A stretch of DNA of 26,750 bases, from IMG/VR virus record IMGVR_UViG_2531839662_000023, one strand, 5' to 3'. This document shows positions 4,327 to 25,093 of this stretch, piece after piece (the first letter of the stretch is position 1; every line of letters begins with the position of its first letter). The notes below the pieces were generated by a model. It did no database searches. It had not been told where the DNA came from and worked only from the letters and a program-made list of their open reading frames with translations. This DNA comes from a virus. Taxonomy: Duplodnaviria; Heunggongvirae; Uroviricota; Caudoviricetes. A program made the position numbers and the translations under genes.

Positions 4327-4401
4327 GGCTGAACTCCTGAAAATGGCTGTGAAAATATCGCCCGCGAAATGCCAGGCTGATTAGGAAAACAGGAAAGGGG
4401 A

Positions 4402-4940: not shown

Positions 4941-5049
4941 TTAAATATAACTGGTTGTATTTAGGATGGATTTATTTTGTGACTTGCATCGCATAGCGAT
5001 AACTGAAGTGAGGTGTGGTGGTTTTTTGGACGGTATGAGTTATGAGGGG

Positions 5050-5082
5050 GAGGAAAAGAAAACCCGGCGCGGTTGCCGGGTA
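5050..5082 (-). terminator. Rho-independent terminator downstream of the lipoprotein gene
   Basis: GC stem CCCGGC(5063-5068)/GCCGGG(5075-5080), followed on the minus strand by TTTTCTTTTCC, immediately 3' of the stop at 5089. Confidence 0.5.
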
Positions 5083-5088
5083 TGATTA

Positions 5089-5469
5089 TCAGTCAGCCCA
5101 ACCTGATTTCGAGTTTATTTGGGTTTCTGACATTGTGTATTTCTTAATCGTGTCATCGTTAAAAAGAATAGTAAGTTCTTTTTTCGTACCGTTCGTTCCG
5201 TTATGGAATAATCCATAGAATGGAATAAAAGTGGTGCCATTAACTTTTACTTTTGCAAAGGCGTACTTCCAGATCTCCTTTCCACTGTCAGTATATGAAA
5301 CAGCATCAGGAGAACCAAAGTAAGATTTAACCTCATTCTTGGTTGTTTTACCTTCCTGAAGTTTAGACTGGACACTAATTTCAGTTTCATTTTTGAGTTG
5401 CTGGTTGCCTGAAGAAGCACACCCAGCCAATACAGATGCCATCATGGCAGCGATTAGGATTTTTCTCAT
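5089..5469 (-). CDS. Predicted lipoprotein, BamE/SmpA-OmlA-like fold
   Basis: 126 aa with signal peptide and lipobox MRKILIAAMMASVLAG-C. Mature region resembles the BamE fold (KLQEGKTTKNEVKSYFGSPD...WKYAF...LTILFNDD). Sits between cI and the early-left genes, where lambda carries rexAB. Confidence 0.6.
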   Translation of the reverse strand: MRKILIAAMMASVLAGCASSGNQQLKNETEISVQSKLQEGKTTKNEVKSYFGSPDAVSYTDSGKEIWKYAFAKVKVNGTTFIPFYGLFHNGTNGTKKELTILFNDDTIKKYTMSETQINSKSGWAD

Positions 5470-5698
5470 TTTATGTTTCCATTCATTATAATCAGAAACA
5501 TCTTAACATAATGATTCGAAATAAAAACCGCTACGAGATAGGGAGACATTTTGCTGACAGTAGCAACAAATCTCAGCTAACAACGAGAATATTTACTGAA
5601 ATATGCAAACAGATTTGGCGTTCTTATAGAGAATTTAGTGCAATATCTAATCCGAGTGGTATAAACCTTAACCTTCGCTCCCTTAAGTCGTAGATAAA

Positions 5699-6388
5699 TT
5701 AACCATGCTTCCTGTACGTCTGCGGCATGCTTCCAATGACCTTACCGAATATGAACACCCGGTTCATCTCGTCTTTCTCGATCGGGTCCCACGGCGAGTA
5801 GCTCTTGTTATCAGAGATAACCAGCAGCTTATCCTTCATCATTTGAAGACGTTTTACATGGGCAGTGTCGTCGTACAGAAACGCATAGATGCCATCACCG
5901 TCGAAAGATTTAACAGTGATATCAACGAACAGCAGGTCACCTGGTTCGATCGTCCCTGACATGCTGTCACCTCGCACGTTAATGATGCGGATATTTTCCG
6001 CCTTCCTGCCATCGAACATGTGACGAGCATCGTCAAACGAGTACTCAACCGAGCGTAGAACTTCTACAAACTCACGGTTGATTACACCTGGCCCGGCACT
6101 GACTTCTATATCAAGAACGTCAATTTTGAAGTATTTGGAATGGCTGACAGTTGATTGTATTGGTTGCACTGTACTGTCTGACATATTTCCAACGCCAGAA
6201 GATAACCATTCTGCGCGTACACCCAAAGCGTTCGCGATCTCCACGATTTTAGTTGTTTGGTTAGCTTTCCCTGTTTCGATTTTCTGAATAGCAGCCTGGC
6301 TAACCCCGACCAAATCCCCAAGCGCCTTTTGTGTAAGGCCTCGCGCTAATCTGGCTTCTTTAAGTCTTTCTGAGAGTGTTGTTTTCAT
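5699..6388 (-). CDS. cI: CI-type phage repressor (HTH_XRE plus S24 LexA-like peptidase)
   Basis: 229 aa. N-terminal HTH (LTQKALGDLVGVSQAAIQKIETGK) and C-terminal S24 autoproteolysis domain (GDSMSGTIEPGDLLFVD...KRL). Divergent from the cro-like gene. Confidence 0.85.
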   Translation of the reverse strand: MKTTLSERLKEARLARGLTQKALGDLVGVSQAAIQKIETGKANQTTKIVEIANALGVRAEWLSSGVGNMSDSTVQPIQSTVSHSKYFKIDVLDIEVSAGPGVINREFVEVLRSVEYSFDDARHMFDGRKAENIRIINVRGDSMSGTIEPGDLLFVDITVKSFDGDGIYAFLYDDTAHVKRLQMMKDKLLVISDNKSYSPWDPIEKDEMNRVFIFGKVIGSMPQTYRKHG

Positions 6389-6429
6389 AGATCAAATGTA
6401 CAACCAAGGTTTTATTTCATCAAACGAAA

Positions 6430-6454
6430 ATGGTTGTTGACTAAAAACAACCAT
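6430..6454. promoter_or_regulatory. OR operator: 25-bp perfect palindrome overlapping the rightward promoter
   Basis: ATGGTTGTT-gactaaa-AACAACCAT is a perfect inverted repeat. The -35-like TTGACT (6437-6442) lies inside it and a GGAGG RBS precedes cro at 6493. Confidence 0.55.
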
Positions 6455-6492
6455 AGTTTTAATCTTGATTCGGATTAACCACGGAGGTTGTT

Positions 6493-6723
6493 ATGAACCC
6501 AGCAATCAAAACAGCGATCAATATCGTTGGTTCACAAAAGAAACTAGGCGATGCCTGCGAAGTTTCACAGCAGGCCGTCTATAAGTGGCTTCACAACAAA
6601 GCAAAGGTATCCCCTGAACATGTCGGCAGCATTGTTACGGCTACTGGTGGAGTTGTGAAGGCATACCAGATTCGCCCGGATCTTCCGAAGTTGTTTCCAC
6701 ACACCGAAAAGAACGCAGCTTAA
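6493..6723 (+). CDS. Cro-like HTH regulator (YdaS-type)
   Basis: 76-aa ORF transcribed divergently from cI across the operator region, with an HTH-like segment (ACEVSQQAVYKWLHNK). Position and size fit Cro. Confidence 0.7.
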   Translation: MNPAIKTAINIVGSQKKLGDACEVSQQAVYKWLHNKAKVSPEHVGSIVTATGGVVKAYQIRPDLPKLFPHTEKNAA

Positions 6724-6792
6724 ATTTCCATTTCACGCTCTTTAACAATAAGCAATCAACTTAACAGTCAATTCAAACTAAAGGAGTCAATT

Positions 6793-7332
6793 ATGCAACC
6801 ACTTACATACCAACAGACTAGCGGATTTATTCCGACTGCGGTGATAAATCGTTCTCAAACAAAACAAGCTCCAGGCCACGAAAAAATCCGTGATGCCGTC
6901 CGCGCCTGGTCGGCTGTAGATAATCAGGATGTCGTTGCCGCACTCATTGTGAATGAGTATCGGGAGCAGGGCGACGGCACCATCGATTTCCCTGATGATG
7001 TCAGCCGTGCACGCCAGAAGCTGTTCCGCTTCCTCGATAACAAATTCGATTCTGAAAAATACCGAAATAACGTGCGTGAACTGACCCCGGCAATTCTGGC
7101 GGTACTACCGCTGGAATATCGCGGTTACCTGGTTGAGCAGGATAGCTTCATGACTCGGTTGGCTGAAATGGAAAAGGAACTCAGTGAGGCAAAACAGGCT
7201 GTCATTCTCAACGCACCACGCCACCAGAAACTGAAGGAAATGAGTGAAGGTATTGTGTCGATGTTTCGTGTGGACCCGGATCTGGCTGGTCCATTAATGG
7301 CGATGGTGACCACCATGCTGGGGGCAATATGA
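6793..7332 (+). CDS. YdaT-like protein (CII-position regulator)
   Basis: 179 aa immediately downstream of the cro-like gene. The motif LTPAILAVLPLEYR resembles Rac YdaT as recalled. Confidence 0.5.
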   Translation: MQPLTYQQTSGFIPTAVINRSQTKQAPGHEKIRDAVRAWSAVDNQDVVAALIVNEYREQGDGTIDFPDDVSRARQKLFRFLDNKFDSEKYRNNVRELTPAILAVLPLEYRGYLVEQDSFMTRLAEMEKELSEAKQAVILNAPRHQKLKEMSEGIVSMFRVDPDLAGPLMAMVTTMLGAI

Positions 7333-7418
7333 CAGGTTCAGAAATGGCGAAAGTCGGTCTGCGGGAACAGAACCGACTTTCAGGTGCAAATCGTAACACA
7401 CTCATTGCGGGAGGAATT

Positions 7419-8348
7419 ATGGCAAACACTGCTGAGATATTCAATTTTCCAGTGCCGGATGCGGCACAAAAGGAGCCGCGCGTGGCAGATCTCGATGATG
7501 GTTATACGCGCATTGCAAATGAGTTGCTGGAAGCTGTGATGCTGGCCGGATTAACACAGCACCAGCTTCTGGTCTTCCTGGCTGTCATGCGCAAAACATA
7601 TGGCTTTAATAAAAGACTGGATTGGGTGAGCAACGAGCAACTTTCCGAATTGACCGGGATATTGCCGCACAAGTGTTCTGCTGCAAAAAGCGTTCTGGTA
7701 AAGCGTGGGATTCTTATTCAGAGCGGGCGAAATATCGGCATTAATAATGTGGTCAGTGAATGGTCAACATTACCCGAATCAGGTAAGAAAAATAAAGTTT
7801 ACCTGAAAGAGGTAAATTTACCTGAATCAGGTAAGAAAAGTTTACCCAAATCAGGTAAAGGCGTTTACCCGAATCAGGTAAACACAAAAGACAAACTAAC
7901 AAAAGACAATATAAAACCTTTTTCGTCCGAGAATTCTGGCGAATCCTCTGACCAGCCAGAAAACGACCTTCCTGTGGTGAAACCGGATGCTGCAATTCAG
8001 AGTGGCAGCAAGTGGGGGACAGCAGAAGACCTGACCGCCGCAGAGTGGATGTTTGACATGGTGAAGACCATCGCGCCATCAGCCAGAAAACCGAATTTTG
8101 CAGGGTGGGCTAACGATATCCGCCTGATGCGTGAACGTGACGGACGTAACCACCGCGACATGTGCGTGCTGTTCCGCTGGGCATGCCAGGACAACTTCTG
8201 GTCCGGTAACGTGCTGAGTCCGGCCAAACTCCGCGACAAGTGGACCCAGCTCGAAATCAACCGAAACAAGCAACAGGCTGGCGTGACAGCCGGCAAACCA
8301 AAACTCGACCTGACGAACACTGACTGGATTTACGGGGTGGATTTATGA
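7419..8348 (+). CDS. Replication initiator O (lambda O family)
   Basis: N-terminal domain resembles lambda O (RVADLDDGYTRIANELLEA...RKTYGFNK). Strong SD GGGAGG before the ATG at 7419. Stop overlaps the P start (ATGA). The 339-aa track ORF has a non-homologous upstream extension. Confidence 0.85.
   Translation: MANTAEIFNFPVPDAAQKEPRVADLDDGYTRIANELLEAVMLAGLTQHQLLVFLAVMRKTYGFNKRLDWVSNEQLSELTGILPHKCSAAKSVLVKRGILIQSGRNIGINNVVSEWSTLPESGKKNKVYLKEVNLPESGKKSLPKSGKGVYPNQVNTKDKLTKDNIKPFSSENSGESSDQPENDLPVVKPDAAIQSGSKWGTAEDLTAAEWMFDMVKTIAPSARKPNFAGWANDIRLMRERDGRNHRDMCVLFRWACQDNFWSGNVLSPAKLRDKWTQLEINRNKQQAGVTAGKPKLDLTNTDWIYGVDL
7769..7881. repeat. Origin iterons inside O (ori-lambda-like)
   Basis: Five 18-bp repeats of TTTACCYRAATCAGGTAA (one degenerate) starting at 7769, 7798, 7817, 7841 and 7864. 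Each holds an internal TTACC/GGTAA inverted repeat. An A-rich tract follows at 7880-7925. Confidence 0.6.
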
Positions 8349-9046
8349 AAAACATCGCCGCACAGATGGTTAACTTTGACCGTGAGCAGATGCGCCGGAT
8401 CGCCAACAATATGCCGGAACAGTACGACGAAAAGCCGCAGGTACAGCAGGTAGCGCAGATCATCAACGGTGTGTTCAGCCAGTTACTGGCAACTTTCCCG
8501 GCGAGCCTGGCTAACCGTGACCAGAATGAACTGAACGAAATCCGCCGCCAGTGGGTTCTGGCTTTCCGGGAAAACGGGATCACCACAATGGAACAGGTTA
8601 ACGCTGGAATGCGCGTAGCCCGTCGGCAGAATCGACCATTCCTGCCATCACCCGGGCAGTTTGTCGCCTGGTGCCGGGAAGAAGCATCTGTTAACGCCGG
8701 GCTGCCAAACGTCAGCGAGCTGGTTGATATGGTTTACGAGTATTGCCGGAAGCGTGGCCTGTATCCGGATGCAGAGTCTTATCCGTGGAAATCGAACGCG
8801 CATTACTGGTTGGTTACCAACTTGTACCAGAACATGCGGGCCAATGCGCTGGCTGACGCGGAATTACGGCGCAAGGCTGCCGATGAACTGACCTGTATGA
8901 CAGCGCGAATTAACCGTGGTGAGACGATACCTGAACCAGTAAAACAACTTCCTGTTATGGGCGGTAGACCTCTAAATCGTGCACAGGCTCTGGCGAAGAT
9001 CGCAGAAATTAAAGCTAAGTTCGGACTGAAAGGAGCAAGTGTATGA
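8345..9046 (+). CDS. Replication protein P (DnaB helicase loader)
   Basis: 233 aa, near-identical by recall to lambda P (MKNIAAQMVNFDREQMRRIANNMPEQYDEKPQVQQVAQ...AKFGLKGASV). Confidence 0.9.
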   Translation: MKNIAAQMVNFDREQMRRIANNMPEQYDEKPQVQQVAQIINGVFSQLLATFPASLANRDQNELNEIRRQWVLAFRENGITTMEQVNAGMRVARRQNRPFLPSPGQFVAWCREEASVNAGLPNVSELVDMVYEYCRKRGLYPDAESYPWKSNAHYWLVTNLYQNMRANALADAELRRKAADELTCMTARINRGETIPEPVKQLPVMGGRPLNRAQALAKIAEIKAKFGLKGASV

Positions 9047-9345
9047 CGGGCAAAGAGGCAATTATTCATTACCTGGGGACGCATAAGAGCTTCTGTGCAC
9101 AGGACGTTGCCGCGGTAACAGGCGCAACCGTAACCAGCATAAATCAGGCTGCGGCTAAAATGGCGCGGGCAGGAATCCTGGTCGTTGATGGTAAGGTCTG
9201 GCGAACGGTGTATTACCGGTTCGCTACCAGAGAAGAATGGGAAGGAAAGGTGAGCACGAATCTGATTTTTAAGGAGTGTCGCCAGAGTGCCGCGATGAAA
9301 CGGGTATTGAGGGTATATAAAAGAACATCAATGGGAACACAATGA
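9043..9345 (+). CDS. ren: Ren protein (Rex exclusion resistance)
   Basis: 100 aa beginning MTGKEAIIHYLGTH...VTSINQAAAKMARAGILVVDGKVWRTVYYRFATREE, matching lambda Ren by recall. Overlaps the P stop. Intact here. Confidence 0.85.
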   Translation: MTGKEAIIHYLGTHKSFCAQDVAAVTGATVTSINQAAAKMARAGILVVDGKVWRTVYYRFATREEWEGKVSTNLIFKECRQSAAMKRVLRVYKRTSMGTQ

Positions 9346-9412
9346 TGAAACAGGTGAGTTGAGTTCAAACTGTAGTACAATTCTCTCCAGTTTGAACAGG
9401 AAAGAATATGCT

Positions 9413-9745
9413 ATGAACCCTTATATTTATCTTGGTGGTGCAATACTTGCAGAGGTCATTGGTACAACCTTAATGAAGTTTTCAGAAGGTTTTACACGGT
9501 TATGGCCATCTGTTGGTACAATTATTTGTTATTGTGCATCATTCTGGTTATTAGCTCAGACGCTGGCTTATATTCCTACAGGGATTGCTTATGCTATCTG
9601 GTCAGGAGTCGGTATTGTCCTGATTAGCTTACTGTCATGGGGATTTTTCGGCCAACGGCTGGACCTGCCAGCCATTATAGGCATGATGTTGATTTGTGCC
9701 GGTGTGTTGATTATTAATTTATTGTCACGAAGCACACCACATTAA
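9413..9745 (+). CDS. emrE: Small multidrug resistance efflux transporter EmrE
   Basis: 110 aa from the internal ATG at 9413 (MNPYIYLGGAILAEVIGTTLMKFSEGF...), with four TM segments and the conserved Glu in TM1. The track ORF carries an 18-aa upstream extension. Confidence 0.9.
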   Translation: MNPYIYLGGAILAEVIGTTLMKFSEGFTRLWPSVGTIICYCASFWLLAQTLAYIPTGIAYAIWSGVGIVLISLLSWGFFGQRLDLPAIIGMMLICAGVLIINLLSRSTPH

Positions 9746-9775
9746 AATAATTTGTTTCTAAACGACTAAAATATG

Positions 9776-9818
9776 GAGGCTCTTATATTTATATGAGCCT
9801 CGTTTTATGCTTTTTGTT
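9776..9818 (+). terminator. Rho-independent terminator after emrE
   Basis: Stem GAGGCTC(9776-9782)/GAGCCTC(9795-9801) followed by GTTTTATGCTTTTTGTT. Confidence 0.55.
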
Positions 9819-9999
9819 AATGTCTTTATTTTTTATGTATTCTTTTGTGCTTTCAAGATTATGGCGTAAGAAAATTGCAATACGATTATTGTTGTATATT
9901 CAAGATAATGTGACCTTAATTGTCTTTTTAAATAAAAAATAAACAAAAATTATATCCCACCACTAAGGTTTATAAAAGCATACGTTAGCAGGTGTCACC

Positions 10000-10569
10000 A
10001 TGAAAAAAGCCATAGCATATATGCGATTTTCATCACCAGGTCAGATGTCTGGCGACTCATTAAACCGACAGAGAAGACTTATTGCTGAATGGTTAAAGGT
10101 AAATAGTGATTATTATCTTGATACCATAACATATGAAGATTTAGGATTAAGTGCATTCAAAGGAAAGCATGCACAATCAGGAGCTTTTTCGGAATTTTTA
10201 GATGCTATAGAGCATGGTTATATATTGCCAGGAACTACATTGTTAGTTGAAAGTCTGGACAGACTTTCAAGAGAAAAAGTCGGTGAAGCGATTGAACGTC
10301 TGAAATTGATTTTGAATCACGGTATTGATGTTATAACTCTTTGCGACAATACAGTCTATAATATTGGCTCTTTGAATGAGCCATATTCATTAATAAAAGC
10401 CATACTTATAGCACAAAGGGCAAATGAAGAAAGCGAGATAAAGTCAAGTCGGGTTAAATTATCATGGAAGAAAAAACGGCAGGATGCACTGGAATCAGGT
10501 ACGATTATGACGGCGTCTTGTCCGAGATGGCTCTCCTTAGATGACAAAAGAACGGCTTTTGTTCCAGAC
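10000..10569 (+). pseudogene. ybcK: Large serine recombinase, N-terminal part, interrupted by IS2
   Basis: Resolvase-type catalytic domain (IAYMRFSSPGQ...LLVESLDRLSRE). Homology stops at the IS2 end (10570). Reading continues in frame after the IS at 11901. Confidence 0.7.
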
Positions 10570-10580
10570 TGGATTTGCCC

Positions 10581-11486
10581 CTATATTTCCAGACATCTGT
10601 TATCACTTAACCCATTACAGGCCCGCTGCCGCAGATATTCCCGTGGCGAGCGATAACCCAGCGCACTATGCGGATGCCATTCGTTATAATGCTCGAACGC
10701 CTCTGCAAGGTTCTTTGCTGCCGTTAACCCGTCTGGTTTGGGCATGATACTGATGTAGTCACGCTTTATCGTTTTCACGAAGCTCTCTGCTATTCCGTTA
10801 CTCTCCGGACTCCGCACCGCCGTGTTCTTCGGTTCAAGTCCCAACATCCGGGCGAACTGGCGTGTTTCATTAGCCCGGTAGCATGAACCATTATCCGTCA
10901 GCCACTCCACTGGAGACGACGGAAGATCGTTGCCGAAGCGGCGTTCCACCGCTCCCAGCATGACGTCCTGTACTGTTTCACTGTTGAAGCCGCCGGTAGT
11001 CACCGCCCAGTGCAGTGCCTCACGATCACAGCAGTCCAGCGCGAACGTGACACGCAGTCTCTCTCCGTTATCACAGCAGAACTCGAACCCGTCAGAGCAC
11101 CATCGCTGATTGCTTTCTTTCACGGCCACTCTGCCTGTATGTGCCCGTTTCGATGGCGGTACAGCAGGTTTTCGCTCAAGCAACAGCGCATTCTGGCGCA
11201 TGATCCGGTAAACACGTTTGGCATTGATCGCAGGCATACCATCAAGTTCTGCCTGTCTGCGAAGCAGCGCCCATACCCGACGATAACCATACGTGGGCAG
11301 CTCTCCGATAACATGGTGTATACGGAGAAGCACATCCGTATCATCAGTGTGACGACTGCGGCGGCCATCCATCCAGTCATCGGTTCGTCTGAGAATGACG
11401 TGCAACTGCGCACGCGACACCCGGAGACAACGGCTGACTAAGCTTACTCCCCATCCCCGGGCAATAAGGGCGCGTGCGCTATCCAC
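10581..11486 (-). CDS. insD: IS2 transposase InsD (OrfB)
   Basis: 301 aa ([30 protein letters not shown]...), recalled as IS2 InsD. Confidence 0.9.
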
Positions 11487-11809
11487 TTTTTTGCCCGTCC
11501 ATATTCAACGGCTTCTTTGAGGAGTTCATTTTCCATCGTTTTCTTGCCGAGCAGGCGCTGGAGTTCTTTAATCTGCTTCATGGCGGCAGCAAGTTCAGAG
11601 GCAGGAACAACCTGTTCTCCGGCGGCGACAGCAGTAAGACTTCCTTCCTGGTATTGCTTACGCCAGAGAAATAACTGGCTGGCTGCTACACCATGTTGCC
11701 GGGCAACGAGGGAGACCGTCATCCCCGGTTCAAAGCTCTGCTGAACAATTGCGATCTTTTCCTGTGTGGTACGCCGTCTGCGTTTCTCCGGCCCTAAGAC
11801 ATCAATCAT
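11444..11809 (-). CDS. insC: IS2 transposase InsC (OrfA)
   Basis: 121 aa from the internal ATG ([40 protein letters not shown]...), recalled as IS2 InsC. The track ORF has a 15-aa extension. Confidence 0.9.
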
Positions 11810-11900
11810 CTGTTCTCCAATGACTAGTCTAAAAACTAGTATTAAGACTATCACTTATTTAAGTGATACTGGTTGTCTGGAGATTCAGGGGGCCAGTCTA

Positions 11901-12862
11901 CAGACCCCGACAGGGTGAAAACTATTGAGCTAATTTTTAAACTCAGGATGGAAAGGCGCTCATTGAATGCAATAGCCAAGTATTTAAATGATCATGCTGT
12001 AAAGAATTTCTCAGGAAAAGAAAGTGCATGGGGACCTTCTGTAATTGAAAAATTATTAGCGAATAAAGCTCTGATAGGTATTTGCGTACCTTCATATCGT
12101 GCAAGAGGGAAAGGGATAAGTGAAATCGCTGGCTATTATCCCAGAGTCATATCAGATGATTTGTTTTACGCTGTACAGGAAATTCGGTTGGCACCTTTTG
12201 GTATTAGCAATAGTAGCAAGAATCCTATGCTAATAAATCTACTTCGAACAGTTATGAAGTGTGAGGCTTGTGGTAATACCATGATTGTTCATGCGGTATC
12301 TGGAAGTTTGCATGGCTATTATGTTTGTCCGATGAGAAGATTACATCGATGTGACAGGCCATCAATAAAAAGAGATTTGGTTGATTATAATATCATTAAT
12401 GAATTGCTTTTTAATTGTAGCAAAATTCAACCAGTTGAAAACAAGAAAGATGCTAATGAAACTTTAGAGTTAAAAATTATTGAGCTTCAGATGAAAATTA
12501 ATAATTTAATCGTTGCATTGTCTGTCGCGCCTGAAGTTACCGCTATAGCAGAGAAAATAAGACTATTAGATAAGGAATTACGAAGGGCTTCGGTATCATT
12601 GAAAACTTTGAAGAGTAAAGGTGTAAATTCATTCAGTGATTTTTATGCTATTGACTTAACCAGTAAAAATGGACGAGAGTTATGCCGTACACTTGCCTAT
12701 AAAACATTCGAAAAAATCATAATTAATACGGATAATAAAACCTGTGATATCTATTTTATGAATGGCATTGTTTTTAAACACTATCCTTTAATGAAAGTAA
12801 TATCCGCCCAGCAGGCGATAAGTGCTCTCAAATATATGGTTGATGGTGAGATTTATTTCTAA
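11901..12862 (+). pseudogene. ybcK: Large serine recombinase, C-terminal part
   Basis: Recombinase and zinc-ribbon region (CEACGNTMIVHAVSG...YYVCPMRR) plus coiled coil. Removing the IS and one CAGAC copy restores ...[17 protein letters not shown]... in frame. Confidence 0.7.
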
Positions 12863-13326
12863 ATAATGATCTCGGATTTTAAGTTATGCTATGGTGATAA
12901 AGTGCAAGACAGAATTAATTATCTTTGACGAAACTTAATGGGTAATTACTTTGTTTGCTCCCACAAGCGAGTTTTGTACGGCTGTATTGGGGTAGTAAAT
13001 GAGCTATACAATCTTAATCATTTGTTAGGTGAGAACTCTTGGTCGCAGATTCAAATACTGAAAATACGTGACAAATTATTATGAGCAAAATGGTGTATGT
13101 CACGTATTTTGAATGGTAGGTTAAAAAATAACACCGACTTTCGTAGGTGTTACTAATAATAAAGCAGAGTTTTTAGATAGTATCAATGTGCTTTGTGTAT
13201 ATTGTGGCAAATAATTGGGTTGGGGGTACAATTGTGATTGCTTTTGCATGAACATTGCGCCTTTATGCATAATGAGATAAAGGAATATCAAATAAAATAA
13301 CGATAGGTCATAACAAAGAGGTTTTT

Positions 13327-13878
13327 ATGAAAACACTTATCGTTTCAACTGTATTGGCATTCATAACATTTTCTGCGCAGGCTGCAGCATTTCAGGTCAC
13401 TAGTAATGAAATAAAAACAGGAGAGCAACTTACAACGTCTCATGTCTTTTCTGGATTTGGGTGTGAAGGTGGTAATACATCGCCCTCATTAACCTGGTCT
13501 GGTGTTCCTGAAGGTACCAAAAGCTTTGCCGTAACTGTATATGATCCAGATGCACCTACAGGCAGTGGTTGGTGGCATTGGACTGTTGTTAATATTCCAG
13601 CAACAGTAACATATTTGCCCGTTGATGCAGGGAGACGTGATGGAACAAAACTGCCGACTGGTGCTGTTCAAGGCCGAAATGATTTTGGCTATGCTGGGTT
13701 TGGTGGCGCATGTCCTCCTAAAGGAGATAAACCACATCATTACCAGTTTAAAGTATGGGCTCTAAAAACTGAAAAGATTCCTGTAGATTCTAACTCCAGC
13801 GGAGCGTTAGTTGGTTATATGCTTAATGCTAATAAAATCGCAACCGCTGAGATAACACCAGTTTATGAGATAAAGTAG
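13327..13878 (+). CDS. ybcL: Periplasmic PEBP/RKIP-family protein YbcL
   Basis: 183 aa with signal peptide MKTLIVSTVLAFITFSAQA and PEBP motifs (YDPDAPTGSGWWHW...PPKGDKPHHYQFKVWAL). Confidence 0.85.
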   Translation: MKTLIVSTVLAFITFSAQAAAFQVTSNEIKTGEQLTTSHVFSGFGCEGGNTSPSLTWSGVPEGTKSFAVTVYDPDAPTGSGWWHWTVVNIPATVTYLPVDAGRRDGTKLPTGAVQGRNDFGYAGFGGACPPKGDKPHHYQFKVWALKTEKIPVDSNSSGALVGYMLNANKIATAEITPVYEIK

Positions 13879-13887
13879 GGTGAGAGT

Positions 13888-14685
13888 ATGCTGGCAAGAG
13901 GTAAGACTAACTTAAAGATCGAAGAAATACGGATGCATAAACATCATGAGATTCATAGGGTTAAGCCTCTTATGCCAGCTTTGTGTCGTATCCGTCAGGG
14001 AAAGAAAGTTATCAATTGGGAGACGCATACTTTAACTGTTGATAATAATCAAATAATATTATTTCCTTGTGGTTATGAATTTTATATTGAGAATTATCCT
14101 GAAGCAGGGCTTTATCTTGCAGAAATGCTTTACTTACCCATTGATTTAATTGAGAGTTTCCAAAAACTTTATACGGTAACTGATCAAATACGTAACAAAA
14201 CAAGTTTCTTTTTACCTCAGAATCCTGAGTTAATATATTGTTGGGAGCAACTAAAAACATCTGTTTCCCGAGGCTTCTCAACTAAAATTCAGGAGCACTT
14301 AGCAATGGGCGTTCTACTTTCGTTAGGAGTGAATCATGTTAATCATTTACTTTTATCATATAGTAAACAATCATTGATAAGTCGTTGTTATAACCTGCTG
14401 CTATCCGAACCCGGCACAAAATGGACAGCAAACAAGGTTGCTCGATATCTCTACATTTCTGTTTCTACATTACATCGCCGTCTAGCAAGCGAGGGGGTAA
14501 GTTTCCAAAGTATACTGGACGATGTGAGGTTAAATAATGCGTTGTCTGCTATACAAACGACGGTAAAACCTATAAGCGAGATTGCCAGAGAAAATGGTTA
14601 TAAGTGTCCTTCTCGTTTTACTGAAAGATTTCATAATCGTTTTAATATAACACCAAGAGAGATAAGAAAAGCTTCCAGAGAGTAA
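13888..14685 (+). CDS. ybcM: AraC-family transcriptional regulator
   Basis: 265 aa with a C-terminal AraC-type HTH ([21 protein letters not shown]...[26 protein letters not shown]). Confidence 0.8.
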
Positions 14686-14801
14686 AAGTGTTTTAAGAAG
14701 GAGCAATTCTATCGATTTTGATTTTGGGAAATCAACACGGCATAATTATGTCACCGGAGCCTGAACAACTCCGGTGACTTCTGCGCTAAACGGGGACGTT
14801 T

Positions 14802-14903
14802 ATGCGCACATACAATCCAAACTCTCTTCTCCCTTCACAGATGCAGAAATGCACCTGCAATTCTTTGCATCTAGCGTTTGACCTCTGCGGAGGGGAAGCG
14901 TGA
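14802..14903 (+). CDS. ylcH: Small protein (33 aa), YlcH-like
   Basis: Own translation: ATG at 14802 gives [33 protein letters not shown], with its stop overlapping the ybcN GTG start (GTGA). Name assigned by position and size. Confidence 0.4.
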
Positions 14904-15355
14904 ACCTCTCACAAGACGGCATCAAATTACATCGCGGCAACTTCACCGCTATCGGTCGGCAGATCCAGCCTTATCTGGAGGAGGGCAAATGCTTTCGCAT
15001 GGTGCTTAAACCGTGGCGTGAGAAACGCAGTCTTTCCCAGAATGCACTCAGCCACATGTGGTACAGCGAAATCAGTGAATACCTCATCAGCAGGGGTAAA
15101 ACGTTCGCCACTCCAGCTTGGGTAAAAGATGCTCTCAAACACACATATCTCGGTTATGAAACCAAAGACCTGGTTGATGTCGTAACCGGTGATATCACCA
15201 CTATCCAGTCGTTACGCCATACCTCCGATCTTGATACCGGAGAGATGTATGTCTTCCTGTGTAAGGTTGAAGCCTGGGCGATGAATATTGGTTGCCACCT
15301 GACTATTCCACAGAGCTGCGAGTTCCAGCTGCTGCGCGACAAGCAGGAGGCGTAA
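14900..15355 (+). CDS. ybcN: NinB-like protein (DLP12 YbcN)
   Basis: 151 aa, GTG start preceded by GGAGGGG. First gene of a tightly coupled nin-region operon. Confidence 0.8.
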
Positions 15356-15525: not shown

Positions 15526-15808
15526 TTTGAGAAAAGCAGCGCGTGGTCGGGAATGCCAGGTAAGAATCCCTGGCGTATGTAATGGCAACCCTGAAACGTC
15601 TGTACTGGCACATATCCGGCTGACTGGATTGTGCGGCACCGGTACGAAACCGCCAGACCTGATTGCCACCATTGCATGTTCTGCCTGCCACGACGAAATC
15701 GACCGCCGCACGCATTTTGTTGACGCTGGATATGCAAAAGAATGCGCGCTGGAAGGTATGGCGAGAACACAGGTTATCTGGCTGAAAGAGGGGGTTATTA
15801 AGGCGTGA
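15518..15808 (+). CDS. ybcO: YbcO, Cys-rich putative nuclease (NinF-like)
   Basis: 96 aa from [28 protein letters not shown] with multiple Cys/His. Overlaps ninE by 8 nt. Confidence 0.75.
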
Positions 15809-16167
15809 ATACCTACAGCATCACATTACCCTGGCCTCCGAGCAATAATCGCTATTACCGCCATAATCGCGGGCGCACGCACGTCAGCGCAGAGGGGCAG
15901 GCATACCGCGATAACGTCGCCCGAATCATTAAAAACGCAATGCTGGATATCGGCCTGGCTATGCCTGTGAAAATCCGCATTGAGTGCCACATGCCGGATC
16001 GCCGTCGCCGTGACCTGGATAATCTGCAAAAAGCCGCTTTTGACGCACTCACTAAAGCAGGTTTCTGGCTGGATGATGCTCAGGTCGTTGATTACCGCGT
16101 TGTGAAGATGCCTGTTACCAAAGGTGGGAGGCTGGAACTGACCATCACCGAAATGGGGAATGAATGA
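15805..16167 (+). CDS. rusA: Holliday junction resolvase RusA
   Basis: 120 aa ([37 protein letters not shown]...), recalled as RusA. GTG start overlapping the ybcO stop. Confidence 0.9.
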
Positions 16168-16304
16168 TGTTTGAGTTTAATATGGCAGAACTTCTTCGCC
16201 ACCGCTGGGGGCGTCTGCGCTTATATCGTTTCCCCGGTTCTGTTTTGACCGATTACCGAATACTGAAGAATTACGCCAAAACCCTGACAGGAGCAGGAGT
16301 ATGA
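16164..16304 (+). CDS. ylcG: Small protein (46 aa), YlcG-like
   Basis: Own translation: [46 protein letters not shown], overlapping the rusA stop. Identity assigned by position. Confidence 0.4.
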
Positions 16305-16389
16305 AGTCAGAGATAACAATCAACTAATACTGTTTTGTTGATTTTTGCTTGTAATTGGCGTTCTGGTCTGATTTTTGTGGAGTAAGTTG

Positions 16390-16773
16390 ATGCGTGATAT
16401 TCAGATGGTTCTTGAGCGTTGGGGAGCGTGGGCGGCTAATAATCATGAAGATGTGACCTGGTCGTCCATTGCCGCCGGTTTTAAGGGATTAATTACTTCA
16501 AAAGTAAAATCTCGCCCGCAATGTTGTGACGATGACGCGATGATCATTTGCGGGTGCATGGCCCGTCTGAAAAAGAACAACAGCGATTTGCACGATTTAT
16601 TAGTAGATTATTATGTAGTCGGTATGACATTCATGTCACTGGCAGGTAAGCATTGCTGCTCTGATGGTTATATCGGGAAAAGGTTACAGAAGGCTGAGGG
16701 CATAATTGAAGGGATGTTAATGGCATTAGATATCCGGTTAGAGATGGATATCGTTGTTAATAACTCTAATTAA
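16390..16773 (+). CDS. quuD: Late-gene antiterminator Q (phage 82 type)
   Basis: 127 aa from [22 protein letters not shown] with Cys-rich zinc-binding segments. Last gene before the late region. Confidence 0.8.
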
Positions 16774-16789
16774 TATGCCAATTGTTTAC

Positions 16790-16825
16790 TAAAAATTATT
16801 AAAAATGGGGCGTTGAGACGCCCCC
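16790..16825 (-). terminator. Rho-independent terminator 3' of the porin gene
   Basis: Stem GGGGCG(16807-16812)/CGCCCC(16819-16824), followed on the minus strand by ATTTTTAATAATTTTT. Confidence 0.5.
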
Positions 16826-16962
16826 AAAAATAAAGGGTAATATATAACAGAAGGTTTATATAGTTAGAAGCAAGGTTGTGCTTCTAAAGGAAGTGGCTTG
16901 AGGGAGCCACTTATATGTTGGGGAGGCAACGCCTCCCGCAACATATCTTTTTCGTAATCAGA

Positions 16963-18060
16963 TTAGAACTGGTAAACCAGACCTACAGCAACGATGTCAT
17001 CAGTGCTTACACCGAGTGCTTTAGTGAAGTCATTTTTGTCAAGCAGGTTGATTTTGTAATCAACGAAAGTAGACATATTTTTGTTGAAGTAATAGGTTGC
17101 ACCTACATCAACATATTTGACTAAGTCCTGATCGCCCCATACTCCAAGATCCTTACCTTTAGATTGCAGGTAAGCAACGGACGGACGCAGACCGAAATCG
17201 AACTGATATTGTGCAACAGCTTCGAAGTTTTGGGCTTTATTAGCAACGAAGTGATCAGCAAATACAGTCATATTCTGGGTTTCAGAATAGGTAGTGGCCA
17301 GGTAAATGTTGTTAGCGTCATATTTCAGACCTGCGGCCCAAACTTCTGCATTTTTACCGGAAGCAAATACTTCAGGAAGAACTTTCCCTGCATTAACTTG
17401 AGTGTCGGTACGATCAGATTTCGCATAAGTTGCACCGATACCGAATCCTTCGTATTCATAGGTAGCAGAGAAACCGAAGCCATCACCGTTACCTTCAGTG
17501 TAGTTATCGAAATCGCTACGATCGTTTTTGCCTTGGTACTGAGCAGCAAAGTTCAGACCATCAACCAGACCAAAGAAGTCGTTGTTACGATAGGTTGCAA
17601 CACCAGTTGCACGTTGAGTCATGAACACGTCGGTTTGAGTCCAAGTGTCACCACCGAATTCTGGCAGGACGTCAGTCCACGCACCGATGTCGTATGCTAC
17701 ACCGTAGTTACGGCCGTAATCGATGGAGCCGTAGTCACCGAATTTCAGGCCAGCGAAGGCAAGACGGGTTTTATCTTTGGAGGAACCTTGAGATTCAGCG
17801 CGGTTGCCTTTGAATTCATATTCCCACTGACCGAAACCAGTCAGTTGATCGTTGATTTGGGTTTCACCTTTGAAGCCAAGATGGGCATAAGTAGTATCAC
17901 CATCATCTGCATCATTAGAGGAGAAGTAGTGCTTAGCATTAACTTTCCCGTACAGATCCAGCTTGTTACTGTCTTTATTATAAATTTCAGCTGCCTGAGC
18001 AGACATCGCCATCAGTACTGATGCAGCTACAGCAGAAATTGCCACTGTTAATTTTTTCAT
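16963..18060 (-). CDS. nmpC: General porin, OmpC/OmpF/PhoE family (NmpC-like), intact
   Basis: 365 aa from [30 protein letters not shown]..., with signal peptide and a C-terminal beta-strand ending in F (VGLVYQF). The track ORF adds 20 aa upstream. Confidence 0.85.
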
Positions 18061-18487
18061 CGTGAGCCCTTTTTTTGAACTATTATTAAAAAATGATGTC
18101 ACTGCGCGATAAATATTCATCTAATCAATGTGATTATTTCAAGATGTAAGTTTTGGTTTCTCGTTTGATTTGTGAAGTAGATCTCTATTTTTATCTGAAC
18201 TTTTTTCTATCGAATCCTATTCATGGCTCTTGGCTGAATAAAAATAAATCTATTAGCCAATTTATATTAACGGCTGTTATTTATAAGCGCTCTATAATTT
18301 GAAGGTTCAATTTAAACCGGCTAAAAATAACACTGGAAATTATTTTTTGGTTATTTGTTGAGATTTGCTTATGTATTTGTAGTGGTGTTTTCAATACTCG
18401 GTAGCATTCTCTCAAATATCATTTAGTGGTTTACGTACGTAAAAAATTGGTTATGCTGTTAAGAGTGGTTACTTCGTCACACAGCTT

Positions 18488-18520
18488 AAACCCGCCGTCG
18501 AGCGGGTTTTTCCATTTTTT
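18488..18520 (+). terminator. Rho-independent terminator upstream of the lysis cassette (tR'-like)
   Basis: Stem CCCGC(18491-18495)/GCGGG(18502-18506) followed by TTTTTCCATTTTTTG, about 115 bp before essD. Confidence 0.5.
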
Positions 18521-18632
18521 GAGTCTCGATATTAGCTGATAACCCAATACCTGAGTTATTCACTGACTCCGAGTCTGTTACGTTTCGTAGTATTCCCTCA
18601 ATTTACACCCGCTTTGTCTGCGAGGTGGGGTT

Positions 18633-18848
18633 ATGAAATCCATGGATAAGTTAACAACGGGTGTCGCCTATGGCACCTCAGCAGGTAGTGCCGGGTACTG
18701 GTTTTTACAGCTGCTAGATAAAGTCACTCCCTCACAGTGGGCAGCAATAGGTGTGCTGGGTAGCCTGGTATTTGGCCTGCTGACGTACCTGACAAACCTT
18801 TATTTCAAGATTAAAGAAGATAAGCGCAAGGCTGCGAGAGGTGAATAA
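18633..18848 (+). CDS. essD: Holin (phage 21 S-like pinholin)
   Basis: 71 aa with two TM segments and a charged C-terminus ([13 protein letters not shown]). GGTGGGG RBS. Confidence 0.85.
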
Positions 18849-19345
18849 TGCCTCCATCATTACGAAAAGCCGTTGCTGCTGCTATTGGTGGCGGAGCAAT
18901 TGCTATAGCATCAGTGTTAATCACTGGCCCAAGTGGTAACGATGGTCTGGAAGGTGTCAGCTACATACCATACAAAGATATTGTTGGTGTATGGACTGTA
19001 TGTCACGGACACACCGGAAAAGACATCATGCTCGGTAAAACGTATACCAAAGCAGAATGCAAAGCACTCTTGAATAAAGACCTTGCCACTGTCGCCAGAC
19101 AAATTAACCCGTATATCAAAGTCGATATACCGGAAACAACGCGCGGCGCTCTTTACTCATTCGTTTACAACGTGGGTGCTGGCAATTTTAGAACATCGAC
19201 GCTTCTTCGCAAAATAAACCAGGGCGATATCAAAGGCGCATGTGATCAGCTGCGTCGCTGGACATACGCTGGCGGTAAGCAATGGAAAGGCCTGATGACT
19301 CGTCGTGAGATTGAGCGTGAAGTCTGTTTGTGGGGGCAACAGTGA
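18848..19345 (+). CDS. rrrD: Endolysin (lysozyme, SAR-type N-terminus)
   Basis: 165 aa. Hydrophobic N-terminal signal-anchor ([18 protein letters not shown]) and T4-lysozyme-like catalytic region (EG...[16 protein letters not shown]). Confidence 0.85.
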
Positions 19346-19803
19346 GCAGAGTAACCGCGATTATATCCGCTCTGATTATCTGCATCATCGTCAGCCTGTC
19401 ATGGGCGGTCAATCATTACCGTGATAACGCAATCGCCTACAAAGTCCAGCGCGACAAAAATGCCAGAGAACTGAAGCTAGCGAACGCGGCAATTACTGAC
19501 ATGCAGATGCGTCAGCGTGATGTTGCTGCGCTCGATGCAAAATACACGAAGGAGTTAGCTGATGCGAAAGCTGAAAATGATGCTCTGCGTGATGATGTTG
19601 CCGCTGGTCGTCGTCGGTTGCACATCAAAGCAGTCTGTCAGTCAGTGCGTGAAGCCACCACGGCCTCCGGCGTGGATAATGCAGCCTCCCCCCGACTGGC
19701 AGACACCGCTGAACGGGATTATTTCACCCTCAGAGAGAGGCTGATCACTATGCAAAAACAACTGGAAGGAACCCAGAAGTATATTAATGAGCAGTGCAGA
19801 TAG
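19342..19803 (+). CDS. rzpD: Inner-membrane spanin Rz
   Basis: 153 aa from the GTG at 19342 ([23 protein letters not shown]...) with N-terminal TM and coiled coil. Overlaps the rrrD stop. Confidence 0.8.
19562..19744 (+). CDS. rzoD: Outer-membrane lipoprotein spanin Rz1, embedded in Rz
   Basis: 60 aa in the +1 frame inside rzpD, with lipobox LVVVG-C and a Pro-rich mature region ([18 protein letters not shown]). Confidence 0.7.
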
Positions 19804-19834
19804 AGCTGACCATATCGATGGGCAACTCATGCAA

Positions 19835-20128
19835 TTATTTTGAGCAATACACACGCGCTTCCAGCGGAGTATAAATGCCTAAAGTAATAAAACCGAGCAA
19901 TCCATTTACGAATGTTTGCTGGGTTTCTGTTTTAACAACATTTTCTGCGCCGCCACAAATTTTAGCTGCATCGACAGTTTTCTTCTGCCCAATTCCAGAA
20001 ACGAAGAAATGATGGGTGATGGTTTCCTTTGGTGCTACTGCTGTCTGTTTGTTTTGAACAGTAAATGTCTGTTGAGCACATCCTGTAATAAGCAGGGCCA
20101 GCGCAGTAGCGAGTAGCATTTTTTTCAT
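19835..20128 (-). CDS. borD: Bor-family outer-membrane lipoprotein
   Basis: 97 aa with lipobox LLITG-C, recalled as Bor/Iss family. Confidence 0.85.
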   Translation of the reverse strand: MKKMLLATALALLITGCAQQTFTVQNKQTAVAPKETITHHFFVSGIGQKKTVDAAKICGGAENVVKTETQQTFVNGLLGFITLGIYTPLEARVYCSK

Positions 20129-20418
20129 GGTGTTATTCCCGATGCTTTTTGAAGTTCGCAGAATCGTATGTGTAGAAAATTAAACAAACCCTAAACAATG
20201 AGTTGAAATTTCATATTGTTAATATTTATTAATGTATGCCAGGTGCGATGAATCGTCATTGTATTCCCGGATTAACTATGTCCACAGCCCTGACGGGGAA
20301 CTTCTCTGCGGGAGTGTCCGGGAATAATTAAAAACGATGCACACAGGGTTTAGCGCGTACATGTATTGTATTATGCCAACACCCCGGTGCTGACACGGAA
20401 GAAACCGGACGTTATGAT

Positions 20419-20829
20419 TTAGCGTGGAAAGATTTGTGTAGTGTTCTGAATGCTCTCAGTAAATAGTAATGAATTATCAAAGGTATAGTAATATCTTTTA
20501 TGTTCGTGGATATTTGTAATCCATCGGAAAACTCCTGCTTTAGCAAGATTTTCCCTGTATTGCTGAAATGTGATTTCTCTTGATTTCAACCTATCATAGG
20601 ACGTTTCTATAAGATGCGTATTTCTTGAGAATTTAACATTTACAACCTTTTTAAGTCCTTTTATTAACACGGTGTTATCGTTTTCTAACACAATGTGAAT
20701 ATTATCTGTGGCTAGATAGTAAATATAATGTGAGACATTGTGACGTTTTAGTTCAGAATAAAACAATTCACAGTTTAAATCTTTTCGCACTTGATCGAAT
20801 ATTTCTTTAAAAATGGCAACCTGAGCCAT
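20419..20829 (-). CDS. ybcV: DUF1398-family prophage protein YbcV
   Basis: 136 aa from the internal Met ([18 protein letters not shown]...). The track ORF extends 41 aa upstream, so the true start is uncertain. Confidence 0.65.
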
Positions 20830-21114
20830 TGGTAAAACCTTCCATGTGATACGAGGGCGCGTAGTTTGCATTATCGTTTTTATCGCTTCAATCTGGTCTG
20901 ACCTCTTTGTGTTTTGTTGATGATTTATGTCAAATATTAGGAATGTTTTCAATTAATAGTATTGGTTGCGTAACAAAGTGCGGTCCTGCTGGCATTCTGG
21001 AGGGAAATACAACCGACAGATGTATGTAAGGCCAACGTGCTCAAACCTTCATACAGAAAGATTTGAAGTAATATTTTAACCGCTAGATGAAGAGCAAGCG
21101 CATGGAGCGACAAA

Positions 21115-21321
21115 ATGAATAAAGAACAATCTGCTGATGATCCCTCCGTGGATCTGATTCGTGTAAAAAATATGCTTAATAGCACCATTTCTATGAGTTA
21201 CCCTGATGTTGTAATTGCATGTATAGAACATAAGGTGTCTCTGGAAGCATTCAGGGCAATTGAGGCAGCGTTGGTGAAGCACGATAATAATATGAAGGAT
21301 TATTCCCTGGTGGTTGACTGA
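21115..21321 (+). CDS. ybcW: Small prophage protein YbcW
   Basis: 68-aa ORF at the position corresponding to the lambda right-end small ORFs. Confidence 0.55.
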
Positions 21322-21485
21322 TCACCATAACTGCTAATCATTCAAACTACTTAACCTGTGACAGAGCCAACACGCAGTCTGTCACTGTCAGGAAAGTGGT
21401 AAAACTGCAACTCAATTACTGCAATGCCCTCGTAATTAAGTGAATTTACAATATCGTCCTGTTCGGAGGGAAGAACGCGGGATGT

Positions 21486-21680
21486 TCATTCTTCATCACT
21501 TTTAATTGATGTATATGCTCTCTTTTCTGACGTTAGCCTCCGACGGCAGGCTTCAATGACCCAGGCTGAGAAATTCCCGGACCCTTTTTGCTCAAGAGCG
21601 ATGTTAATTTGTTCAATCATTTGGTTAGGAAAGCGGATGTTGCGGGTTGTTGTTCTGCGGGTTCTGTTCTTAGTTGACAT
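21486..21680 (-). CDS. ylcI: Small basic protein YlcI (DUF3950-like)
   Basis: 64 aa with an Arg-rich N-terminus (STKNRTRRTTTRNIRFPNQ). Confidence 0.55.
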   Translation of the reverse strand: MSTKNRTRRTTTRNIRFPNQMIEQINIALEQKGSGNFSAWVIEACRRRLTSEKRAYTSIKSDEE

Positions 21681-21849
21681 GAGGTTGCCCCGTATTCAGT
21701 GTCGCTGATTTGTATTGTCTGAAGTTGTTTTTACGTTAAGTTGATGCAGATCAATTAATACGATACCTGCGTCATAATTGATTATTTGACGTGGTTTGAT
21801 GGCGTAGATGCACGTTGTGACATGTAGATGATAATTATTATCATTTTGT

Positions 21850-22068
21850 GGGTCCTTTCCGGCGATCCGACAGGTTACGGGGCGGCGACCTCGCGGGTTT
21901 TCGCTATTTATGAAAATTTTCCGGTTTAAGGCGTTTCCGTTCTTCTTCGTCATAACTTAATGTTTTTATTTAAAATACCCTCTGAAAAGAAAGGAAACGA
22001 CAGGTGCTGAAAGCGAGCTTTTTGGCCTCTGTCGTTTCCTTTCTCTGTTTTTGTCCGTGGAATGAACA
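21850..22068 (+). other. cos site (cosQ-cosN-cosB), lambda type
   Basis: Near-identical by recall to the lambda genome termini. cosN 12-nt cohesive-end sequence GGGCGGCGACCT at 21880-21891, followed by CGCGGGTTTTCGCTATTTATGAAAATTTTCCGG... up to the Nu1 start. Confidence 0.75.

Positions 22069-25093
<3,025 letters not shown>

Follow-up and report, generated by a model that had tools for sequence, protein, structure and literature searches.

A complete lambda-type cos site, very probably a relic, in a deleted DLP12-family prophage of porcine-ETEC-like Escherichia coli

Why does a prophage without a terminase large subunit carry what appears to be a complete packaging site, and could a helper phage make use of it? 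The question is raised by the right part of a stretch of 26,750 nucleotides (the window), for which a first-pass annotation had suggested packaging in trans by a helper lambdoid phage. Positions 1-25000 of the window are 99.9% identical to the argU prophage of porcine enterotoxigenic E. coli (ETEC) UMNF18, and we assign the element, by its sequence, to the DLP12 family of prophages at tRNA-Arg argU in a porcine-ETEC-like E. coli. Membership was judged from the NCBI/PGAP annotation of the UMNF18 locus, a comparison with K-12 MG1655 and the argU-derived att repeats; integration at argU, intD beside attL and the DLP12 gene order through to appY were all found. The annotated UMNF18 locus begins on the left with intD, an IS3-family element, exo, bet and gam remnants and kil, followed by a block with an S24-peptidase repressor gene, cro, a CII-like gene, O, P and emrE. 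Its middle comprises ybcK (split by IS2), ybcL, ybcM, ybcN, ninE, ybcO, rusA, quuD and a porin gene, its right part essD, rrrD, rzpD, bor, ybcV, ybcW, ylcI and a truncated nohD, and its far right fragments of I, J and tfa, then appY and ompT. The att repeats lie 29,749 bp apart in UMNF18, which carries a 1,313-bp IS1203 ahead of the porin gene; the window copy is without IS1203, giving a unit of about 28.4 kb (28,436 bp = 29,749 minus 1,313 bp), or 58.6% of lambda.

The K-12 DLP12 prophage (qsr') belongs to the same family, occupies the same argU site and shows the same gene order ybcV, ybcW, ylcI, cos, nohD, with 99.7% identity over window 17021-22574, and neither copy has a terminase large subunit or head genes. 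The two differ in what else has been kept. K-12 DLP12 has lost xis, most early-left genes, cI/cro, O and most of P, whereas the early, replication and immunity genes are all retained in the window copy; K-12 has a full-length nohD with a 309-bp A fragment (aaaD) behind it, whereas Nu1 of the window copy is truncated and fused to the remainder of I (I').

Aligned to the joined ends of lambda (NC_001416), positions 21850-22048 read as a complete lambda-type cos with cosQ, cosN, I2, R3, I1, R2 and R1:

21850-21856, plus strand: cosQ (GGGTCCT), sub-site of packaging termination; identical to lambda, with lambda-like spacing, about 30 bp upstream of the top-strand nick
21875-21896, no strand assigned: cosN, about 22 bp; identical to the lambda end junction
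21879/21880 (top strand) and 21891/21892 (bottom strand): expected cosN nicks, predicted
21897-21929, plus strand: I2, bent-DNA segment (lambda bp 18-50); identical to lambda
21932-21947, plus strand: R3 of cosB, site for TerS (Nu1), motif CGTTTCCGTTCT; identical to lambda
21948-21983, plus strand: I1, between R3 and R2; identical to lambda 69-104
21984-21999, minus strand: R2 of cosB, inverted TerS site, motif CGTTTCCTTTCT at minus-strand 21988-21999; identical to lambda
22016/22017, no strand assigned: 1-bp deletion relative to lambda (G138/139) in the R2-R1 spacer, from the alignment
22033-22048, plus strand: R1 of cosB, TerS site, motif CGTTTCCTTTCT; identical to lambda

For cosQ we take the lambda coordinate to be 48473-48479, after Wieczorek & Feiss 2001. 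Compared with lambda 48473-190, the site shows two differences: T>C at 21863 (lambda 48486), with no other substitution from cosQ to cosN, and the loss of 1 bp from the R2-R1 spacer. Apart from this missing G, window 21880-22068 matches lambda 1-190, and lambda 1-137 is identical in the window, including the cosN-R3 spacing through I2. The sub-sites are identical in sequence and order, and in spacing from cosQ to R2; differences from lambda include the R2-R1 spacer, shortened by 1 bp, about nine substitutions in the 50 bp to the left of cosQ, and the lack of a neighbouring gene for a cognate gpA. The 12-nt cohesive end GGGCGGCGACCT occurs once in the window, at 21880-21891 (chance expectation 0.03), and no second cos site was found there, even with one mismatch permitted. 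The R motifs CGTTTCCNTTCT lie at 21932(+), 21999(-) and 22033(+), in the lambda R3, R2, R1 arrangement, again with a chance expectation of 0.03. The claim that cosQ, cosN and cosB are present and near-identical to lambda was therefore correct, and their location had been given accurately. In lambda, cosQ acts in the termination of packaging, I2 (bp 18-50) is essential for an early packaging step, and I1 provides an IHF site and an intrinsic bend (PMC4856287), both predicted here by position in I1. Two minus-strand ORFs across cos (21696-21953 and 21966-22124), annotated in phage records, were regarded as spurious, since cos cleavage would split them. Between 21300 and 22300, Rfam at its gathering threshold returned no other functional element and a promoter and terminator scan nothing convincing; elsewhere in the window, Rfam found an IS3 frameshift pseudoknot.

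Such a site might be an inactive look-alike, its function abolished by the R2-R1 deletion and the substitutions left of cosN. Lambda 48446-182 serves as a functional cos cassette in the Feiss laboratory (PMC4856287), and this 238-bp stretch indeed shows six differences from lambda. However, none of the six lies in cosQ, cosN, I2, R3, I1, R2 or R1, and five of them, the 1-bp deletion included, are shared with the free Escherichia phage Turner, which, according to its record, was isolated from water and whose lambda-type terminase and head module is complete. Turner is matched exactly over 219 bp, from cosQ up to the Nu1 ATG, and the 289-bp stretch singled out by the first-pass annotation (21780-22068; E=3e-133 against lambda-type phages) is 1 base off Turner, PhiR11_1 and PhiR68_2; the free-phage comparison relies on Turner because no source paper for the PhiR series was found in the literature. 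The same 1-bp deletion is present in K-12 DLP12 and in an intact prophage of strain Res13, and lambda stays viable in recombinants that have acquired the more divergent K-12 DLP12 region (PMC3945230). Divergence of cosN or cosB at positions essential for terminase recognition, named beforehand as the outcome that would speak against packaging, was looked for and appeared in none of the sub-sites. We thus regard loss of function as extremely improbable: judged by its sequence, this is a working cos of lambda specificity, and a lambda-specificity terminase supplied in trans should recognise and nick it.

To the right of cos, the small-terminase gene runs directly into the remains of the tail genes:

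22069-22929, plus strand: in-frame fusion ORF of 286 aa, comprising Nu1/NohD residues 1-169, I residues 81-183 and a 16-aa tail
22565-22574, plus strand: deletion junction with a 10-bp microhomology, lambda 696 joined to lambda 15008/15017 (overlapping blastn segments)
22878-25081, plus strand: internal fragment of the tail-tip gene J, both ends gone (lambda 15620-17823; PGAP pseudogene)

The deletion spans lambda 697-15007 (about 14.3 kb) and takes in the end of Nu1, A through K and the start of I; a second, small deletion has removed the end of I and the start of J. By BLASTP, the Nu1 part of the fusion is identical to lambda Nu1 residues 1-170 at 168/170 positions, and the I part to lambda I at 103/108 (aligned I residues 76-183). 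A tblastn search with 23 morphogenesis proteins of lambda recovered no more than fragments of Nu1, I, J and Tfa; A, W, B, C, D, E, FI, FII, Z, U, V, G, H, M, L, K, Lom and Stf were not found in the window. The absence of gpA and the truncation of Nu1, cut after residue 169 and joined in frame to I, had thus been read correctly, whereas the statement that all structural genes are lacking holds for intact genes only, as fragments of I, J and tfa remain.

The origin of this arrangement is indicated by a sister prophage at argU in E. coli O169:H41 Res13-Lact-PER13-34, a pig strain, which looks complete. Its nohD is full length, genes for the terminase large subunit, portal, protease, decoration protein, capsid, FI and FII are present, and the tail genes are all there as far as J, lom, stf and tfa, with appY and ompT beyond them; from att to att it measures 47,334 bp (98% of lambda). 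As many as 21 of the 22 translated window ORFs are 100% identical to Res13 (Int, Xis, Exo, Kil, CI, Cro, the CII-like protein, O, P, RusA, QuuD, EssD/RrrD/RzpD, Bor and six others), the exception being the porin, and the kept I fragment is 100% identical at the DNA level. The cos site is therefore very probably a relic in a very recent deletion derivative of a lambda-like prophage of about 47 kb. A single microhomology-mediated deletion would have removed Nu1 codon 170 to I codon 80, and cos still stands where it normally does, flanked by the right-end genes (lysis, bor, ybcV, ybcW, ylcI) on one side and the small-terminase gene on the other. Since the left end of the deletion fell 695 bp right of cosN, cos and most of Nu1 were kept, and selection for keeping cos need not be invoked. 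Elsewhere in E. coli, at least two deletions of independent origin have likewise joined Nu1/A to I with cos kept, which could hint at something beyond chance or equally be part of a wider loss of morphogenesis genes.

The exact deletion junction is present in 7 of 5,426 complete E. coli genomes, all pig ETEC. These copies differ by IS insertions, and the left end has been replaced in three strains, as vertical decay would produce. In IMG/VR, the Nu1-I junction has one exact match, the contig of the UMNF18 prophage prediction with IS1203; as this is not virome DNA, the match was ruled out as evidence of encapsidation.

We also considered a domesticated anti-phage function, in which the Nu1(1-169)-I' protein, or the chromosomal cos itself, hinders the packaging of superinfecting lambda-like phages, by cosB binding, by mixed TerS oligomers with poor TerL contact, by terminase titration or by an abortive chromosomal break. 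The fusion ORF is uninterrupted and covers the Pfam Phage_Nu1 model in full (1-164/164), so that DNA binding and self-assembly should persist, while only the last 12 Nu1 residues are lost. The C-terminal region of Nu1, these 12 residues included, reportedly contacts gpA (Frackman et al. 1985; Yang et al. 1999). The Rpp proteins of phage-inducible chromosomal islands (PICIs) offer an analogy, being TerS-like mimics of the DNA-binding domain that block lambda packaging (PMC6739421). However, a deletion fuses two genes in frame one time in three by chance, PGAP calls the equivalent UMNF18 region pseudogene pieces, the allele is limited to one small group of pig strains, and K-12 and most other strains have full-length nohD. 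The ORF would moreover be expressed only from the Q-dependent late promoter, and no conservation signal favours the idea. An anti-phage role thus appears very unlikely, and a relic left by a chance deletion stays our preferred reading.

Elsewhere in the prophage, the following modules were located:

1-1164, minus strand: integrase (PGAP intD); 100% identical to the intact sister prophage
1020-1391, minus strand: full-length excisionase ORF overlapping the integrase (phrog_2907, 2-117/117); 100% identical in the sister
5699-6388, minus strand: CI-type repressor with HTH and S24 peptidase domains, predicted to be SOS-cleavable (from domains and sister identity)
7329-9046, plus strand: replication genes O and P (Pfam Phage_rep_O, Phage_lambda_P); identical to the intact sister
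7770-7886: replication origin, three 22-nt iterons inside O
16390-16773, plus strand: antiterminator QuuD
16963-18120, minus strand: intact porin
18633-19803, plus strand: lysis genes for holin EssD, lysozyme RrrD and spanin RzpD

Cro and a CII-like protein are also encoded. PGAP treats xis as a pseudogene, which we ruled out, as ORF 1020-1391 spans the whole excisionase profile and the complete sister has the identical ORF. Where N would usually lie (5089-5469), the ORF is not N-like by profile comparison, and bet and gam have been destroyed by a deletion that fused them. The proposal that the replication, Q and lysis modules are apparently intact was borne out, their proteins being 100% identical to those of the complete sister, with att repeats and iterons present. 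The apparently functional state of Int, Xis, att, CI, O/P/ori, Q and the lysis genes makes induction, excision and replication plausible.

We then considered what a lambda-specificity terminase would do with this locus. After cleavage, terminase remains bound to the end that carries cosB, from which it translocates, and the cosQ end is left open to nucleases (PMC4856287), and cos terminases need a second cos to finish (PMC8575938). The Nu1/A terminase of a lambda-specificity phage would bind R3-I1-R2 and nick cosN, and packaging in situ would thus run rightward from 21880 through nohD', J', appY and ompT into host DNA, not into 1-21880, and with no second cos would never end properly. The left 21.9 kb would be encapsidated only after excision and concatemer formation. 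The expectation that encapsidated DNA would span 1-21880 is thus at odds with the direction of packaging in situ, which points toward appY/ompT.

In its strongest form, packaging in trans would make this a helper-dependent mobilisable element, which would excise once SOS is induced or a heteroimmune phage with the packaging specificity of lambda infects, replicate by its own O/P/ori, have its concatemer packaged into helper capsids by the helper Nu1/A and spread to new argU sites. All requirements in cis and in trans, apart from virion proteins, appear to be present and intact, and the cos allele is that of the viable phage Turner. Lambda transfers any plasmid with a lambda cos (PMC6092414, PMC6739421), defective O157 prophages are packaged and transferred through complementation (PMC2669165), and complete sister phages of the same packaging specificity circulate in pigs. 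The size of the element, however, argues against this reading. Lambda heads accept 78-105% of genome length, or 38-52/53 kb (PMC5437064, PMC9764419), whereas the monomer of the window unit amounts to 58.6% of lambda and the dimer, at 56.9 kb, to 117%; the IS-free sister copies in HNSQ2209 and ETEC1716, of about 25.8 kb, would give a dimer of 51.6 kb, at the edge of the range. Since bet and gam are destroyed, concatemers would be fewer unless the helper supplies these functions. The helper itself is a further difficulty. The UMNF18 genome, the nearest match to the window, has no second lambda-type cos-Nu1 locus that could act in this role, so a helper must come by infection and be heteroimmune, and the complete sister phage, with the same repressor and att site, would be a poor one. 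The rarity of the junction and its decay as under vertical descent, the sole IMG/VR match being a prophage prediction, and the failure of the K-12 copy to excise on lambda infection (PMC3945230) also speak against it; that copy lacks xis and the early genes. We thus consider a mobilisable element unlikely. The more general idea of trans-packaging by a lambdoid helper stands in part: the cis site is intact and there is precedent, while unit and dimer size and the want of a helper locus in UMNF18 tell against it. Productive packaging of the whole element is probably rare or inefficient, if possible in principle at low frequency.

The precedent comes from O157 Sakai, in which defective lambdoid prophages without terminase or head genes were still packaged; Sp4, which has no intact terminase, was most likely packaged with the terminase of Sp14, a prophage with a nearly identical cos (Asadulghani et al. 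2009, PMC2669165). Like Sp4, the window element has no working terminase, a cos near-identical to that of a competent phage, and a retained integrase and replication genes, and at the sequence level it shows the features of a Sakai-type complemented prophage. It differs in having lost all head and tail-shaft genes and in a length far under head capacity; moreover, packaging and transfer were measured for Sakai, with co-resident helper prophages, whereas the likeness drawn here is one of sequence. By analogy, the complemented defective prophage of O157 Sakai is its nearest functional counterpart.

Resemblance to cos-type satellites is weaker. Cos-type PICIs (EcCICFT073 family) and P4 share with the window element an integrated state, helper-like cosQ/cosN and the want of a terminase large subunit, and they are packaged by lambda or phi80 and by P2, respectively (PMC6739421, PMC6092414). 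PICIs, however, measure about 10-15 kb and fit the helper capsid as an integer multiple, EcCICFT073 (15 kb) travelling in threes (3 x 15 kb = 45 kb; PMC6092414), whereas no such fit exists for the window element of about 28.4 kb. PICIs have their own pri-rep replicon, exclusive genes, helper-dependent induction and interference with the helper (PMC6092414, PMC6739421) and are without lysis genes, whereas the window element has CI/Cro, the CII-like protein, O, P, Q, holin, lysozyme and spanin. The PICI cosB is unlike that of the helper and is read by the island's own Rpp (PMC6739421), whereas the window cosB is of the lambda, and thus helper, type, and no Rpp-like gene is found in the locus annotation. 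Nor does the annotation contain P4 hallmarks (primase/helicase alpha, Sid/Psu, delta/epsilon), and cos is lambda-type, not P2-type. Membership in the PICIs or P4 was ruled out by the size of the element, its genes and the type of its cosB. The proposed likeness to cos-type satellites thus did not hold, given also the rightward run in situ, the rare, decaying junction and the want of a helper locus. A proto-satellite, in which the gutted prophage, with induction, excision, replication and lysis functions and a helper-identical cos retained, rarely hitch-hikes in the capsids of heteroimmune phages of lambda specificity that circulate in pig E. coli, the IS-free 25.8-kb form as a dimer, with the Nu1-I protein biasing packaging, seems distinctly unlikely; if true, it would offer a snapshot of cos-type satellites arising from prophages. 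Packaging as a unit would likewise make the element a useful natural intermediate between defective prophage and satellite, and nothing found points that way.

For the preferred reading, a relic cos in a deletion derivative, the most likely consequence would be a double-strand break at cos leading to homologous exchange with incoming lambda-like phages. De Paepe 2014 described 3,353 bp of homology between lambda and K-12 DLP12, 98% identical and 'separated by the cos site'; lambda recombinants with DLP12 were a hundred-fold commoner than with Rac or Qin, and 10 of 19 lambda-DLP12 junctions adjoined cos (PMC3945230). Double-strand breaks at the lambda and DLP12 cos sites were proposed to stimulate the exchange; recombinant phages with DLP12 nu1, R or Rz were viable, and K-12 DLP12 did not excise during the infection (PMC3945230). 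Primers for the 'DLP12 cos junction' had been reported by Poteete 2004 (PMC545071). Both the DLP12 cos site and the trans-packaging of a terminase-less lambdoid prophage are thus already established, and the feature is an already-described DLP12-family relic of limited practical value.

Sequence variation around the window cos is consistent with such exchange. One segment stands out in a comparison with K-12 DLP12, the complete Res13 prophage and strain PSJ-23:

21932-22420, plus strand: recombination patch, lambda/Turner-like; 13 sites differ from other DLP12-type copies

The window differs from the compared copies at 0-1 positions in 18600-21931, at 13 in 21932-22420 and at 0 in 22421-22879 (binomial P ~2e-11 for the clustering). 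It has lambda bases at four cosB positions where other DLP12 copies differ: the K-12 cosB has four extra substitutions, including the first base of R3 (C>T at 21932, also in the intact Res13 prophage), and the window cosB is nearer lambda. On the left, the patch begins somewhere in 21864-21931, where cosN also lies, and it would fit cos-stimulated recombination with another lambda-like phage.

Lambda-type cos sites are in fact an everyday feature of E. coli chromosomes: the 725-bp segment from cosQ to Nu1 is present at >=80% coverage in 3,911 of the 5,426 complete genomes (~72%), at a median of two places per genome. Chromosomal cos sites of this type in defective prophages are therefore common, and they are best viewed chiefly as hot spots of breakage and recombination, from which lambdoid phages entering the cell would acquire late-gene and terminase modules. 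In pig ETEC, exchange with lambda-like phages could also move emrE, the porin gene, bor, appY and ompT, all of which the window copy carries, the porin gene intact.

The pig isolate E. coli Res13-Lact-PER13-34 (Res13) was found to carry, at argU, a 47.3-kb lambda-like "full-length DLP12" prophage (within NZ_CP062824.1 1652154-1701473), which is apparently complete, with every morphogenesis gene annotated as intact. Its cosB contains K-12-type variants, including a C>T change at the first base of R3. When the window was compared with K-12 DLP12, this intact Res13 prophage and the copy in strain PSJ-23, a discrete patch covering cosB and most of Nu1 was delimited by its differences from these DLP12-type copies:

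21932-22420, left edge within 21864-21931: lambda/Turner-like recombination patch (Turner being a free lambda-like phage)

The patch holds 13 differences from the same three copies, and its flanks show 0-1 over 3.3 kb leftward and 0 over 460 bp rightward. cosN falls within the left boundary interval.

We also found that other E. coli strains carry different deletions, in which Nu1 or a 309-bp A fragment is joined to gene I and cos is retained. The Nu1/A'-to-I deletions, in coordinates of the extracted loci, are as follows:

3615-4672 of L006: PSJ-23
3615-4807 of L007: FORC 064
17335-18163 of L004: K-12

The A' fragment of FORC 064 and aaaD of K-12 are equal in length. At least two of these deletions arose independently of the window's own.

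Elsewhere in the window, the following features were noted:

1020-1391, minus strand: full-length P22-type excisionase ORF (123 aa), with a 145-bp overlap with the 5' end of int
1939-3248: IS3-family element between the DUF1317 gene and exo
3946-4326, minus strand: gam-bet fusion, formed by a 704-bp deletion (lambda 32222-32925)
5089-5469, minus strand: 126-aa ORF of unknown function (phrog_3135), first downstream of the presumed pL
10570-11900: IS2 in ybcK
16963-18120, minus strand: intact nmpC-type porin gene (385 aa)

At the excisionase ORF, PGAP reports just an "incomplete HTH" pseudogene of 66 bp, and does so in the complete sister prophage as well; this call is probably an annotation artefact. 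The 704-bp deletion inactivates gam and bet, of which it leaves the initial 71 and about the final 60 codons, respectively, fused together; the adjoining exo is intact. The 126-aa ORF occupies the position of lambda N and has a weak BamE-like match that falls under the Pfam cut-off. A homologue of N is not evident.

The IS3-family element contains an ALIL frameshift pseudoknot at 2797-2913, and neither this element nor IS2 is present in the sister copies of HNSQ2209 and ETEC1716. In the closest genome, UMNF18, a third insertion sequence, IS1203, lies ahead of the porin gene. Whereas the K-12 DLP12 porin gene is disrupted by IS5, the window copy is intact, and it is the sole tested ORF with a product that differs from those of both UMNF18 and Res13.
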